From Escherichia coli (GTDB lineage: Bacteria > Pseudomonadota > Gammaproteobacteria > Enterobacterales > Enterobacteriaceae): a DNA stretch of 64,000 nucleotides. The notes beneath the pieces were generated by a model. That model saw nothing but the letters and a program-made list of their open reading frames with translations. It was not told the DNA's origin and ran no database searches. Of the stretch, positions 1 to 61,200 are shown piece after piece (within the stretch, counting starts at the first letter, position 1; the number at the start of each line of letters is the position of its first letter). Made by a program: the position numbers and the translations under genes. The DNA lies in NCBI RefSeq assembly GCF_044647545.1, contig NZ_CP172818.1; one strand, 5' to 3'.

Positions 1-774
1 CCGGTGACCGGTGATGAATATAACGCTAAAAACGCCATCTTCACCGTTTCGGAAGCAATGGAGCACTTCTCCTATTTGCCGACCGGATTGTACGTATTTG
101 CGTATAAAAAAGACGTTTATTTTCAGGTATGTACATTGATTATTTTCTTTGCCGCATTGGTGGCAGTGATATCGGGTGCCAGTTGCCTCTATCTGGTACG
201 CAGAGTGATTAATCGTGGTATTGTGGAGAAAGAAGCCATTATTAATAACCATTTTGAACGCGTCCTGGATGGCGGGCTTTTCTTTTCGGCTGCCGATGTC
301 AAAAAACTCTACAGTATGTATAACTCGGCATTCCTGGACGATCTGACCAAAGCAATGGGCAGAAAATCCTTTGATGAAGATTTAAAAGCCCTGCCGGAAA
401 AAGGCGGCTATTTGTGCCTGTTTGACGTCGATAAATTCAAAAACATTAACGACACCTTCGGTCATTTGCTGGGCGATGAAGTGTTGATGAAAGTGGTGAA
501 AATCCTTAAATCACAGATCCCGGTAGATAAAGGTAAAGTCTACCGCTTCGGCGGTGACGAATTTGCGGTGATTTATACTGGCGGCACGCTGGAAGAGTTG
601 CTATCGATTCTAAAAGAAATCGTTCATTTCCAGGTGGGAAGCATTAATTTAAGTACCAGTATCGGTGTAGCGCATTCAAATGAATGTCCTACCGTCGAAC
701 GCTTGAAAATGCTGGCGGATGAGCGGCTGTATAAGAGTAAGAAAAACGGCAGGGCACAGATTAGCTGGCAGTAA
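1..774 (+). CDS. dgcI: Diguanylate cyclase DgcI (YliF), C-terminal GGDEF part; 5' end lies outside the window
   Basis: ORF 4..774 runs in from the window edge; translation contains GGDEF-type motifs (RFGGDEF) and matches YliF C-terminus as recalled; synteny upstream of rimO. Confidence 0.8.
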
Positions 775-1704
775 TTAGAATATTATACCCCTTAATCAAG
801 GGTACTAATGAATTGGTAAATCATTTCAAACATTTTACTTTGCAAAAACTTCCGGCCCTTTTATTCCAATGTATTCAAAAAACGCAATGCCGGCCCCTTC
901 TTTTTTTTTCTTTTCCTCCCCTTTTCTAAAACTTTTTTTTTTAAATTCCCTTTTGTTCCAAAACCGGGTGGATGCCCCGTCCGGCGGGCCTTTTTCTCTT
1001 CTCCCCCCTTTGTTTTTGTTTTGCTTATGGGCCGCACTCTCGGGTTTGTGACTTAAGGGGAAGGACAAACTTCCAAACAACAAACAGACCCACATTTCTT
1101 TCCTTTCTTTTCAATTTAATTTTTTTTTTTTTCTCCCAAAAAAAAAACAAATTCAAAAAAAATCTTTTTTTATTGCTAAAGGCCAGAAATGCATTTGCCA
1201 TTTTTTTGTAGGCCGCCAGTTCATCATCTTCGATTTCTTTGGTTCCTTTACTACTTAGACCACTCTTGGACCAACCATCATAAAAAAACACATGATTTGC
1301 TGATTTAAAAAAAATAATTTTTTTGCCTCCCCCTCTTTCTTTTTGAGGGGGAAATTTTTTTTAAGAACACCCCAACCTAAATCACCCTCCCATATGCCCT
1401 CCATCACTTCTCCAGCGCAAGCCATAAAAATTTTATATTAAAAACCAAGTTTTTTTTGTTTTGCGGAATCTTTCCCTTATACACACCCATACACCCATCT
1501 TTTGTTATTGTTTATATTATAAAAATTATTCTTTTTTAAAAAAAATTGAAAAAAAAAATTTATTTTGGAAAAAAAAAGGAGGGTTGCCCGAAGGTTTTTT
1601 TTTTTTTGATTTATGGGGGGGATTTTTGGGAAGGAAAGGAAAGGGGGGAGGGAAGGAGAGGAAGAAAAAAAAAAAATTAATTTAGATTTCTGCCTTAAGA
1701 TTAA
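775..1704. other. Compositionally aberrant low-complexity intergenic block (homopolymer runs, CT/GA-skewed tracts); no credible ORF
   Basis: Seen directly: T and A runs of 10 or more, tracts such as ggaaggaaaggaaaggggggagggaaggagaggaag; overlapping ORFs translate to poly-F/K/G/L peptides. Confidence 0.6.
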
Positions 1705-3030
1705 TTAAACCCGGCTACCCCACAAATCGTACTCATCGGCGTGCTCGACTTTCACACGCAGGATATCACCCGGCTTAACGTTGGTTTCACCATTGAGATA
1801 AACCGCGCCGTCGATTTCCGGTGCATCTGCCATGCTGCGACCAATCGCACCTTCTTCGTCCACTTCGTCGATAATCACCAGAATTTCACGGCCCACTTTC
1901 TCTTGCAGGCGCTCGGCGGAAATCTGCTGCTGCAACTGCATGAAACGGTTCCAGCGTTCTTCTTTCACTTCTTCCGGAACCTGGTCAGGCAGGGCATTGG
2001 CGTCTGCACCTTCAACCGGGCTGTATTTAAAGCAGCCAACGCGATCCAGACGTGCTTCTTTCAGGAAGTCGAGTAGCATCTGGAAATCTTCTTCCGTCTC
2101 GCCAGGGAAACCGACAATAAAGGTTGAGCGTAGGGTCAGTTCCGGGCAGATTTCGCGCCACTGTTTGATGCGCGCCAGTTGGCGATCTACAGAACCCGGA
2201 CGCTTCATCAGTTTGAGAATGCGCGGGCTGGCGTGCTGCAACGGAATGTCCAGATACGGCAGGATTTTGCCTTCTGCCATCAGTGGGATGACGTCGTCCA
2301 CATGCGGATAAGGGTAAACGTAGTGCAGACGTGTCCAGATCCCCAGTTTCGATAACTGTTCGCACAGGCTGACCATGCTGGTTTTTACCGGCTCGCCGTT
2401 GTGGAAGCCAGTACGATGTTTAACATCAACGCCATAGGCGGAAGTATCCTGCGAGATCACCAGAATCTCTTTAACGCCCGCATCAACCAGACGTTTCGCT
2501 TCACTTAACACTTCGCCAATAGGACGGCTCACCAGGTCGCCGCGCATAGACGGAATAATGCAGAAGGTGCAGCGGTGATTACAGCCTTCAGAAATTTTCA
2601 GATAGGCATAATGACGCGGCGTCAGTTTCACGCCTTGTTCTGGCACCAGGCTCAGGAATGGGTTGTGTTTCGGTTTTGGCACGTAGTGATGAACGTGCTC
2701 CAGAACCTGCTCATAGCTATGAGGCCCGGTGATTTCCAGCACTTTCGGGTGGACTTCGCGGATCTGATCTTCTTTTGCCCCCAGACAACCGGTCACAATT
2801 ACCTTGCCGTTTTCATTCAACGCTTCACCAATGGCTTCCAGTGATTCTTGTACCGCGCTGTCAATAAAGCCGCAGGTGTTGACGATCACCATGTCCGCAT
2901 CGTCATAGCTCGGTACCACGTCATAACCTTCAGTGCGTAGTTCGGTGAGAATACGCTCTGAATCGACAAGGTTTTTCGGACAGCCAAGGGAAACAAAGCC
3001 GATTTTCGGCTGGGGAGTTACTTTGCTCAT
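1705..3030 (-). CDS. rimO: Ribosomal protein S12 methylthiotransferase RimO (radical SAM, MiaB family)
   Basis: 441 aa ORF, CxxxCxxC radical-SAM motif (CNHRCTFC), length and sequence match RimO/YliG. Confidence 0.93.
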
Positions 3031-29226: not shown

Positions 29227-29305
29227 AATCATTTCCTTATTAGCTTGTTCTGAAAAATGGCGTTATACGATAATAGATGATATCCTTTCAATACCATCTT
29301 AAAAG

Positions 29306-29570
29306 CACAAAACAATACTTTATATTATAATAATAAAAATATATACTAATAATTAAAAAAATTAACATATACAACACATAATAAAAAAAAATAATAATTT
29401 AATATAAAAAAATAATTAAAAATTCTAAAAAACTTTAAATAATTTTAATAACAATCAAAATTATTAAATATTAAATCAAAAAAAAAAATTTTTAAAATAA
29501 AAAAAAAACAAATAAAAAAAATAATAATAAAACTATTAAATTATAAAAAAAAACAAATAATATTAAAAAT
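29306..29570. other. Extreme AT block with zero G over ~265 bp; non-enterobacterial composition
   Basis: Counted directly: no G and about 13 C between 29306 and 29570; A/T homopolymers and (aat)n-like tracts. Confidence 0.6.
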
Positions 29571-39893: not shown

Positions 39894-40297
39894 GAAAACC
39901 CAGTCCTTGCAAAGATGAAGTCGAAATGCGCGATGACACACTACTGAAAGCGGAAGGACGAGTAAAGTTGCAATTAAAAGGAAATGTTATGCATCAGGAG
40001 CAGGGGATTTTTATTATGTTGCATTGTTGTGGTCTCTTCCATGTGCATTAAGCCACTGGCGAGGAGCGCAAATCGCCGATCGTTTCCTGTAGGCCGGGGC
40101 AGCCCACATAATGTGGGCTGAGGGCGCGTTTTACAGGGATCAAACTTACCGGTCGCGCGAGAAGTCCAACTTCAGCCCGAGGTTCATGTGGCTTCCTGGC
40201 CTTCGGGAACCGCTTCAGCGTATTGACGCCACCAAGACCCGTGGTTCGGTAACGTCGAAGATAAAACAACCAGGGCAGATAAAGTGCCAATGCTTAA

Positions 40298-40993
40298 TTA
40301 ATTACGTTTTTCCAGTAGAGTCCGGTAAATCAGACCACCGATAATACCGCCGACAATTGGCACCACCCAGAAGAACCACAATTGTTCTAACGCCCAGCCG
40401 CCCTGGAAGATAGCAACCGCGGTGCTGCGCGCCGGGTTAACAGAAGTGTTAGTCACCGGAATACTGATTAAGTGAATCAGGGTTAAGGCCAGACCAATAG
40501 CGATCGGCGCAAAACCTGCCGGAGCGAATTTGTCGGTTGCGCCGTGGATCACCAGCAGGAAACCTGCACTCAATACCAGTTCAACTACCAGCGCGGAAAG
40601 CATGGAATAACCGCCTGGCGAATGCTCGCCATAACCGTTAGAAGCAAAACCGCTGGCTGCCGCGTCAAAACCTGTTTTACCACTGGCAATTAAATACAGC
40701 AGCGCCGCCGCAACAATACCGCCGACAACCTGGGCAATTACGTAGCCAACGACTTCTTTTGCCGGAAAACGTCCGCCAGCCCATAAACCAATAGTGACCG
40801 CCGGGTTAAAATGACCACCAGAAATATGACCAACAGCGAAGGCCATCGTCAGAACGGTCAGACCGAATGCCAGCGCCACGCCGGCAAAACCAATGCCTAA
40901 TTCCGGGAAGCCTGCGGCCAGTACGGCACTACCACAGCCACCAAAAACAAGCCAGAAAGTACCAAAACATTCAGCTGCTAATTTTCTGAACAT
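40298..40993 (-). CDS. aqpZ: Aquaporin Z
   Basis: 231 aa from ATG 40993; two NPA motifs (HFNPAV, SVNPAR). Confidence 0.95.
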
Positions 40994-50545: not shown

Positions 50546-50738
50546 TTTATGGGGTGGAACGGTGAAAACCCTATTTTTGGAGGTGAAGGTAAGTTGTTGA
50601 TAATTAGTGCTGCTGGAAAAGGTAAGGATAAAAAAGGGTGACAGCAGGAAAATGAGATGGTTTTGCTTTATTAACAACGGACTAAACGTGTAGTATTTGA
50701 TTCACTCCGACAATAAAAGAAAATCAAAGTTGAAATGG

Positions 50739-50826
50739 GTTCACTGCCGTACAGGCAGCTTAGAAATTCACTGGTAACATACTCCACCCGCCCACCATGT
50801 TCACTGCCGTACAGGCAGATAAAATG
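50739..50826 (+). CRISPR. Vestigial type I-F CRISPR array: 2 repeats (second degenerate at 3' end), 1 spacer of 32 bp; no cas genes nearby
   Basis: Repeat 1 at 50739-50766 GTTCACTGCCGTACAGGCAGCTTAGAAA (the I-F / Ypest-type repeat); spacer 50767-50798; repeat 2 at 50799-50826 GTTCACTGCCGTACAGGCAGataaaatg; AT-rich leader upstream; clpA-infA location is the known I-F CRISPR site in E. coli. Confidence 0.85.
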
Positions 50827-50832
50827 CGAAAA

Positions 50833-58209: not shown

Positions 58210-61200
58210 TTGAGCCAGGAATACACTGAAGACAAAGAAGTCACATTGACAAAGTTAAGTAGCGGCCGCCGCCTTCTGGAGGCGTTGCTGATCCTTATTG
58301 TCCTGTTTGCCGTCTGGTTGATGGCTGCCTTACTAAGCTTTAACCCTTCGGACCCCAGCTGGTCGCAAACGGCCTGGCATGAACCTATCCATAATTTAGG
58401 TGGGATGCCCGGTGCATGGCTGGCAGATACGCTGTTCTTTATTTTTGGCGTGATGGCTTACACCATTCCCGTCATTATTGTCGGCGGTTGTTGGTTTGCC
58501 TGGCGTCATCAGTCCAGCGACGAATACATTGATTATTTTGCCGTTTCGCTACGCATCATTGGCGTTTTGGCGCTCATCCTTACCTCCTGTGGTCTGGCGG
58601 CAATCAACGCTGACGATATCTGGTATTTTGCCTCCGGTGGCGTCATTGGCAGCTTACTGAGCACTACGCTACAACCACTGCTACACAGTAGCGGGGGAAC
58701 TATTGCACTGCTCTGCGTTTGGGCAGCGGGCCTGACGCTGTTCACCGGTTGGTCATGGGTGACCATTGCTGAAAAACTCGGCGGCTGGATTTTAAATATT
58801 CTTACCTTCGCCAGTAATCGTACCCGTCGCGATGATACCTGGGTCGATGAAGATGAGTATGAAGACGACGAAGAATATGAAGAAGATGAAAGTCACGGCA
58901 AACAGCATGAATCACGCCGTGCCCGTATTCTTCGCGGCGCGCTAGCGCGTCGTAAACGGTTGGCGGAAAAATTCATTAATCCGATGGGGCGGCAAACAGA
59001 CGCTGCGTTGTTCTCCGGTAAGCGGATGGATGATGACGAAGAGATTACCTACACTGCACGCGGTGTGGCTGCCGACCCTGACGACGTCCTCTTTTCGGGC
59101 AATCGTGCAACGCAGCCAGAATATGACGAGTACGATCCATTATTAAACGGTGCGCCAATTACCGAACCTGTTGCTGTAGCAGCTGCTGCTACCACGGCGA
59201 CACAAAGCTGGGCTGCACCGGTTGAACCTGTGACTCAGACGCCGCCAGTTGCCTCTGTTGATGTTCCACCTACGCAACCTACAGTAGCCTGGCAGCCTGT
59301 ACCGGGGCCGCAAACAGGAGAACCGGTTATTGCACCTGCACCGGAAGGTTACCCACAGCAGTCACAATATGCGCAGCCTGCAGTGCAATATAATGAGCCG
59401 CTGCAACAACCTGTACAGCCACAGCAGCCGTATTATGCGCCTGCAGCGGAACAGCCTGTGCAACAACCTTACTACGCTCCTGCGCCGGAACAGTCTGCGC
59501 AACAGCCGTATTACGCCCCTGCGCCAGAACAATCGGTGGCAGGTAACGCCTGGCAAGCCGAAGAGCAGCAATCCACTTTTGCTCCACAGTCTACATACCA
59601 GACTGAGCAAACTTATCAGCAGCCAGCCGCTCAGGAGCCGTTGTACCAACAGCCGCAACCCGTTGAACAGCAGCCTGTTGTGGAGCCTGAACCCGTTGTA
59701 GAAGAGACAAAACCCGCGCGTCCGCCGCTTTACTATTTTGAAGAAGTGGAAGAGAAGCGTGCCCGTGAACGTGAACAACTTGCGGCCTGGTATCAACCGA
59801 TTCCTGAACCGGTTAAAGAACCAGAACCGATCAAATCTTCGCTGAAAGCACCTTCTGTTGCAGCAGTACCTCCAGTGGAAGCCGCTGCCGCTGTTTCCCC
59901 TCTGGCATCTGGCGTGAAAAAAGCGACACTGGCGACGGGGGCTGCCGCAACCGTTGCCGCGCCAGTCTTCAGTCTGGCAAATAGCGCTGGACCGCGTCCG
60001 CAGGTCAAAGAGGGGATTGGCCCGCAGTTGCCACGACCGAAACGCATCCGCGTGCCAACTCGTCGTGAACTGGCGTCTTACGGTATTAAGCTGCCCTCAC
60101 AGCGTGCGGCAGAAGAAAAAGCCCGTGAAGCTCAGCGCAATCAGTACGATTCCGGCGATCAGTATAACGATGATGAAATCGATGCGATGCAGCAGGATGA
60201 ACTGGCACGTCAGTTCGCCCAGACACAGCAGCAACGCTATGGCGAACAGTATCAACATGATGTGCCCGTGAACGCAGAAGATGCAGATGCTGCGGCAGAG
60301 GCTGAACTGGCTCGTCAGTTTGCTCAAACTCAACAACAACGTTATTCCGGCGAACAACCTGCTGGGGCGAATCCGTTCACTCTGGATGATTTTGAATTTT
60401 CGCCAATGAAAGCGTTGCTGGATGATGGTCCACACGAACCGCTGTTTACGCCAATTGTTGAACCTGTACAGCAGCCGCAACAACCGAAAGTTGCACCGCA
60501 GCAGCAATATCAGCAGCCGCAACAGCCGGTTGCACCACAGCCGCAATATCAGCAGCCGCAACAGCCGGTTGCGCCGCAGCCGCAGTATCAGCAGCCACAA
60601 CAACCGGTTGCGCCGCAGCCGCAATATCAGCAGCCACAACAGCCAGTTGCGCCGCAGCCGCAGTATCAGCAGCCACAACAGCCAGTTGCGCCACAGCCGC
60701 AGGATACCCTGCTTCATCCGCTGTTGATGCGTAATGGCGACAGCCGTCCGTTGCATAAACCGACGACGCCGCTGCCTTCTCTGGATTTGTTGACGCCGCC
60801 GCCGAGCGAAGTGGAGCCGGTAGATACCTTTGCTCTTGAACAAATGGCGCGTCTGGTGGAAGCGCGTCTGGCTGATTTCCGTATTAAAGCCGATGTCGTC
60901 AATTATTCTCCGGGGCCGGTTATCACTCGCTTTGAATTGAACCTGGCACCGGGCGTAAAAGCGGCGCGTATTTCTAACTTGTCACGTGACCTTGCCCGTT
61001 CACTTTCGACGGTGGCGGTGCGTGTCGTTGAAGTTATTCCTGGCAAACCCTATGTAGGTCTGGAGTTACCGAATAAAAAACGACAAACCGTTTATCTGCG
61101 TGAAGTTTTGGATAACGCCAAATTCCGCGATAATCCGTCGCCATTAACCGTGGTGCTGGGTAAAGATATCGCCGGTGAGCCGGTGGTTGCCGATCTGGCG

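Follow-up and report, generated by a model that had tools for sequence, protein, structure and literature searches.

The window, a stretch of 64,000 nucleotides of an Escherichia coli contig (NZ_CP172818.1), carries between dgcI and rimO a block of roughly 930 nt in which the remnants of a toxin gene and of an antitoxin gene can be traced (Table 1). A three-way alignment of the window with the intact locus of strain CFSAN061771 and with the genome of strain BS-01 shows that the block is collinear with an intact toxin-antitoxin island. The dgcI-rimO locus of CFSAN061771 (NZ_CP042896.1 3112336-3113335) was used as the reference, and positions in it are given below in L001 numbering. In K-12, merely a 46-nt spacer separates the two flanking genes.

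Table 1. Features of the dgcI-rimO locus in the window and in the intact reference (L001, strain CFSAN061771).
Feature	Coordinates	Strand	Basis or remark
dgcI	4..774	+	left neighbour of the island
Garbled toxin-antitoxin island, ~1 kb	775..1704	.	three-way alignment: window, CFSAN061771, BS-01
HTH_3 antitoxin gene remnant, heavily garbled	835..1128	-	mapped from the intact CDS, L001 745..1074
Flagged 88-aa ORF, chimera	1025..1291	-	ORF list and BLASTP
PF06296 toxin gene remnant, frameshifted and substituted	1121..1490	-	mapped from the intact CDS, L001 1064..1450
Preserved pocket, toxin residues F63-N109	1170..1312	-	longest exact stretch in the island
rimO	1705..3030	-	right neighbour of the island
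Intact toxin, 128 aa, WP_000539521.1	L001 1064..1450	-	CFSAN061771 annotation
Intact HTH antitoxin, 109 aa, WP_001280945.1	L001 745..1074	-	CFSAN061771 annotation

The intact island is common. When positions 600-1900 of the window were compared by megablast with 5426 complete E. coli genomes, about 1130 genomes were found to hold most of the query. Their annotation places two genes between dgcI and rimO, one for a "type II toxin-antitoxin system RelE/ParE family toxin" and one for a helix-turn-helix protein. A shorter query spanning the preserved pocket (1150-1330) gave matches in 1137 of the 5426 genomes at 95-99% identity, always under the RelE/ParE family toxin gene. The island of about 1 kb is intact and at least 98.6% identical at the same site in these 1137 genomes, that is, in about one fifth (21%) of complete E. 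coli genomes. In CFSAN061771 the antitoxin gene lies downstream of the toxin gene on the same strand, with an overlap of 11 nt. In a large protein collection the exact toxin and antitoxin sequences are each found on at least 1000 contigs, under the names "Addiction module toxin RelE" and "transcriptional regulator", respectively.

The intact toxin matches the profile HMM of PF06296 with 113.8 bits (gathering cutoff 27; E=6.9e-33), its residues 1-124 aligning to model positions 1-120 of 120. The intact orthologue is matched by the full model of this "RelE" family, which comprises ribosome-dependent mRNA endonucleases of the Vibrio cholerae HigB-2 type and belongs to the RelE/ParE BECR-fold superfamily. 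PF06296 has been listed as the HigB2/RelE family, in which the toxin gene precedes the antitoxin gene and the activity is ribosome-dependent mRNA degradation; the prototypical K-12 RelE sits in another Pfam family, PF05016 (PMC11980606 Table 1). The intact E. coli locus has the order typical of PF06296, a bicistronic layout in which a small DNA-binding antitoxin follows the toxin. The intact antitoxin matches HTH_3 in Pfam (E=1.9e-9) and shows sub-threshold matches to MqsA (Xre/MqsA-C-terminal) and NadS. When PDB sequences were searched by phmmer (E<=1) with the intact toxin as query, no matches were obtained, so no solved structure is detectable by sequence. By analogy with the family, the HTH antitoxin would bind and neutralise the toxin and repress its own operon, and free toxin would cleave translated mRNA on the ribosome.

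The remnants in the window occupy the same genomic site as the WP_000539521.1/WP_001280945.1 island, on the same strand and in the same gene order, toxin then antitoxin. Unlike in that island, both genes are unreadable in the window outside the pocket, where the consensus is garbled. The window does not hold an intact, translatable toxin gene: the remnant can be traced in all three minus-strand frames, with substitutions and indels outside 1170-1312. Frame 1 keeps MGVYKGKIPQNKKNL, corresponding to residues 1 to ~28; frame 0 keeps MACAGEVMEGIWEGDLGWGVLKK, residues ~24-58; frame 2 keeps IIFFKSANHVFFYDG. Of the antitoxin, the C-terminal ...IKGPEVFAK alone is readable, and the ORF 835..1095 on the minus strand terminates in EYIGIKGPEVFAK. 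The pocket (L001 1122-1264) is identical to the intact locus of CFSAN061771 at 143 of 143 nt and is the longest exact match in the island. Four successive 30-nt bins there have an identity of 1.0, and BS-01 preserves this stretch as well.

The minus-strand ORF flagged by the original prediction overlaps this pocket. It is present as described, with 88 aa and a GTG start in the ORF list, where its translation opens MFFYDGWSKSGLSSKGTKEIEDDELAAYKKMANAFLAFSNKKRFFLNLFFFWEKKKK; after the opening MFFYDGWSKSGLSSKGTKEIEDDELAAYKKMANAFLAFSNKK it turns into K/F-rich low complexity. The normal-looking peptide at its beginning had been placed at about 1190-1291. Its 42 residues (3 x 42 nt) in fact span 1166-1291, so the end at 1291 stands and the peptide is slightly longer than was thought. 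The suggestion that it might be a fragment of a real small gene proved correct. By blastp (E=8e-28), it aligns with residues 70-111 of WP_000539521.1, the annotated toxin, with 40 identities in 42 residues, and both differences lie at the ends: Val70 is taken as an initiator because its codon is GTG, and Q111 is replaced by K where the garbling resumes. The pocket stretch is kept in 21% of complete E. coli genomes, the opposite of the lack of homologues and conservation that was expected of a chance ORF. Two other parts of the original prediction have to be given up. The peptide is no N-terminus: it comes from the middle-to-C-terminal part of the toxin, which is 128 aa long. Nor is it native intergenic sequence. 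Pfam and NCBIfam searches of the 42-aa and 88-aa sequences alone gave no matches (Pfam E<=0.01), and the family was therefore assigned through near-identity to the full-length member. The source of the peptide is thus an already known, catalogued type II toxin-antitoxin locus of the PF06296/HigB2 type.

The ORF could also be read as a genuine small gene that is expressed from the GTG and gives either a truncated toxin or a small protein of a new kind. It does offer 88 open codons, and its first 42 residues are compositionally normal. We give this reading a vanishingly small probability. The GTG is the Val70 codon of the parent gene, and the 21 nt upstream of it (TTTTTTAAATCAGCAAATCAT), in which a ribosome binding site was to be looked for, contain no Shine-Dalgarno motif, as fits an internal codon and not a start codon. 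Codons 1-42 (1166-1291) correspond to toxin residues 70-111. The remaining codons, 43-88, read through scrambled DNA of the toxin C-terminus and of the start of the antitoxin gene, and the residues they encode are garbage with no counterpart in any homologue. Neither a Pfam match nor, among 153 billion gene positions, any record of the exact 88-aa product was found. Compared with WP_000539521.1, the ORF has an internal-codon start and a garbage end; it is an accident of the scrambling that begins at the Val70 codon, and not a gene.

The original prediction had also described a low-complexity block around the peptide, and the fraction of bases identical to their predecessor bears this out: between 801 and 1800 it is 0.45-0.60, compared with 0.27 (SD 0.046) for the window on average. 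In two lobes, identity to the intact locus drops to 0.53-0.73 when calculated in bins of 30 nt. The damage follows a definite pattern. Among 144 substitutions, 117 (81%) copy an adjacent true base, compared with 42% expected, and transversions are as common as transitions. True bases survive according to the length of the run in which they stand: 59% when isolated, 86% in doublets and 94-100% in runs of three or more. The indels of the block amount to 79 nt deleted and 9 inserted. At either end, the block stops no more than ~10 nt from the place where homology to K-12 breaks off or restarts.

The surrounding DNA is clean. To the right of the block, the alignment with K-12 has 0 gaps in 22,961 aligned nt. 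If the garbled sites are left aside, the window differs from CFSAN061771 over its first ~47 kb by 132 mismatches (0.29%) and 1 indel, and 150 of the 152 gap positions in that part fall inside garbled blocks. In the remaining 17 kb, gaps against CFSAN061771 occur only at 50700-50738 and at one 36-nt length difference in ftsK. In the undamaged part of the window, which is essentially indel-free, identity to CFSAN061771 amounts to 99.7%. AT-richness, or a short-read coverage bias linked to it, was considered as the cause of the damage and discarded: the GC content is 47-57% in the worst-garbled part of the block (L001 871-1050), and AT-rich stretches elsewhere in the window are clean.

Four sites in the window are garbled: 775-1704, 29294-29568, ~39995-40295 and 50700-50738. 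Compared with the K-12 layout, each of the four is an insertion or a replacement, and indels of 1-2 nt against K-12 in the same regions are cleanly called.

The second low-complexity block, at 29294-29568, lies in the spacer between ybjP and ybjQ and consists of a 275-nt A-rich smear, of which none of the 5426 complete E. coli genomes contains a version that can be aligned. CFSAN061771 has at this place a 2.5-kb island of ~31% GC with a pentapeptide-repeat pseudogene; when the true sequence of the smear was sought there, no convincing alignment with that island was found. The 46 nt to the left of the smear (29248-29293) resemble the island-less, K-12-type spacer and are missing in CFSAN061771. 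They could be the K-12 backbone "showing through", or else a real allele. The smear is probably the same artefact on a longer insertion.

The third site is the REP-rich lysO-aqpZ spacer at ~39995-40295, in which K-12-like and CFSAN061771-like pieces form a mosaic, with small substitutions and indels scattered through it. The maximum coverage of 39950-40450 by any genome is 68%. This spacer looks like a case of milder garbling at a structurally variable site.

The fourth site belongs to a remnant CRISPR array of type I-F, located at 50700-50830 between clpA and tRNA-Ser/infA; its repeat GTTCACTGCCGTACAGGCAGCTTAGAAA we take to be a type I-F CRISPR repeat. The first repeat-spacer unit measures 60 nt in CFSAN061771 and is absent from K-12. 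The window has 38 nt of it (50700-50738), with isolated bases lost, and the next repeat and spacer are perfect.

It could be argued that the block is real DNA, an island decayed by natural pseudogenisation or hypermutation of which the peptide is the last intact piece. The frames of toxin and antitoxin are broken throughout 775-1704, and toxin-antitoxin loci are often degraded in bacterial genomes. However, divergence of ~25-45% is limited to 930 nt, and the flanks are 0.29% from the closest relative without indels. In each of the 1137 other carriers, the island keeps at least 98.6% identity. The spectrum is not a mutational one, given the 81% of neighbour copies, the dependence of survival on run length and the equal frequency of transversions and transitions. 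Three further spots in the window, including a CRISPR repeat-spacer unit, are equally damaged, and the read-stacking simulation described below reproduces the pattern. Taken together, the spectrum of errors, the cleanness of the flanks and the presence of further garbled sites leave practically no room for natural decay, and we regard it as extremely improbable. We judge the broken toxin gene of the window to be an assembly artefact and not a property of the strain, and the living strain very probably carries an intact operon. Overall, it is highly likely that two things hold together, namely that the peptide is a fragment of a known toxin and that it lies inside a consensus or assembly artefact; this artefact is read from the pattern of the sequence itself.

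The same island is scrambled in a second genome. E. coli BS-01 (RefSeq NZ_CP172816.1) shows the same style of garbling and the same clean pocket, and its identity profile correlates with that of the window (r=0.79). BS-01 is a different strain, its flanks being ~97% identical to those of the window (about 3% diverged). In BS-01 the clean pocket extends further, to about L001 1380, and the lobes are garbled differently in detail. At NZ_CP172816.1 853816-854184, RefSeq annotates WP_400168500.1, a 122-aa "RelE/ParE family toxin". The N-terminal IRKKNCFSVKIF and C-terminal KKKNFFLIFFFFFFEKKRKNKKYF parts of this protein are translated garbage, and the antitoxin of the garbled island is not called in the annotation. 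WP_400168500.1 is a spurious entry that arose from the same kind of artefact. A literature search on the sequencing method of the BS-01 genome project gave nothing relevant.

We hypothesize that the genome was built or polished on a backbone without the island, so that the island entered as long insertions which were not realigned; we find this account reasonably probable. Noisy reads would then be stacked out of register, and taking the majority base in each column would yield neighbour-copied bases and the loss of isolated ones. The pocket would have stayed correct where the 46-nt spacer of the backbone aligns best, holding the reads in register. A simulation was made with 40 noisy copies of the left lobe of the island, left-justified and not realigned, from which the majority base of each column was taken. 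It gave a neighbour-copy fraction of 0.76-0.86 (0.77 observed in the left lobe), an isolated-base survival of 0.45-0.50 (0.56 observed) and an identity that runs along the lobe from 0.94 to 0.58 (0.84/0.98 to 0.58 observed). To the eye, the simulated sequence is like the real block.

Within the island, the K-12 spacer aligns best to two segments of the pocket, L001 1154-1167 and 1239-1250, which would serve as register anchors for reads piled on an island-less backbone. The position of the anchor varies with gap costs, and one parameter set placed it at L001 1286-1316, just outside the pocket. The model is incomplete. A left-justified pile-up predicts the worst sequence just before the anchor; contrary to this strict prediction, the pocket reaches ~118 nt to the left of the best anchor. 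An intrinsic robustness of the pocket to smoothing was considered and set aside: isolated-base content correlates with identity at -0.41, and the isolated-base fraction of the pocket is unremarkable. We infer that the backbone reasoning accounts for the garbling in BS-01 too.

The recurrence of the damage in two strains invites a different explanation, in which a physical cause at the locus, such as dense modification or structure, defeats nanopore base-calling and no island-less backbone is involved. The window and BS-01, ~3% apart, are garbled at the same locus with correlated profiles and a common clean pocket. Poor nanopore signal also loses isolated bases and keeps runs, so the loss of isolated bases and the survival of runs would be expected here as well. 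If this were true, the recurrence would report a real property of the DNA. Against it, the garbled sites are unrelated (a toxin-antitoxin island, an A-rich insert, a REP-rich spacer and a CRISPR unit), and the sole trait common to the four is that they are insertions relative to the K-12 layout. The block edges match the island boundaries within ~10 nt, the worst-garbled part has an ordinary composition (47-57% GC), and 1136 other assemblies read the island normally. The common pocket, moreover, would be explained by the position at which the backbone spacer aligns. We consider a physical cause very unlikely and favour the island-less backbone.

The biological weight of the finding is small, as the toxin is already catalogued in the RelE/ParE superfamily and is found in more than 1000 complete E. 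coli genomes. Its interest is for quality control. Scrambled blocks stand at insertions relative to a K-12-type layout both in the window and in at least one "complete genome" of RefSeq (BS-01), and annotation pipelines convert such blocks into spurious proteins, WP_400168500.1 being an example. Where an otherwise clean assembly contains low-complexity blocks of this sort, they should be taken for consensus artefacts that mark real accessory DNA, and not for novel elements.

The length difference in ftsK is of another kind. At ~60487 the window differs from CFSAN061771 by a clean 36 nt within an internally repeated segment (secondary matches at 60469-60705), which is probably genuine variation in repeat number in the FtsK linker and not garbling.
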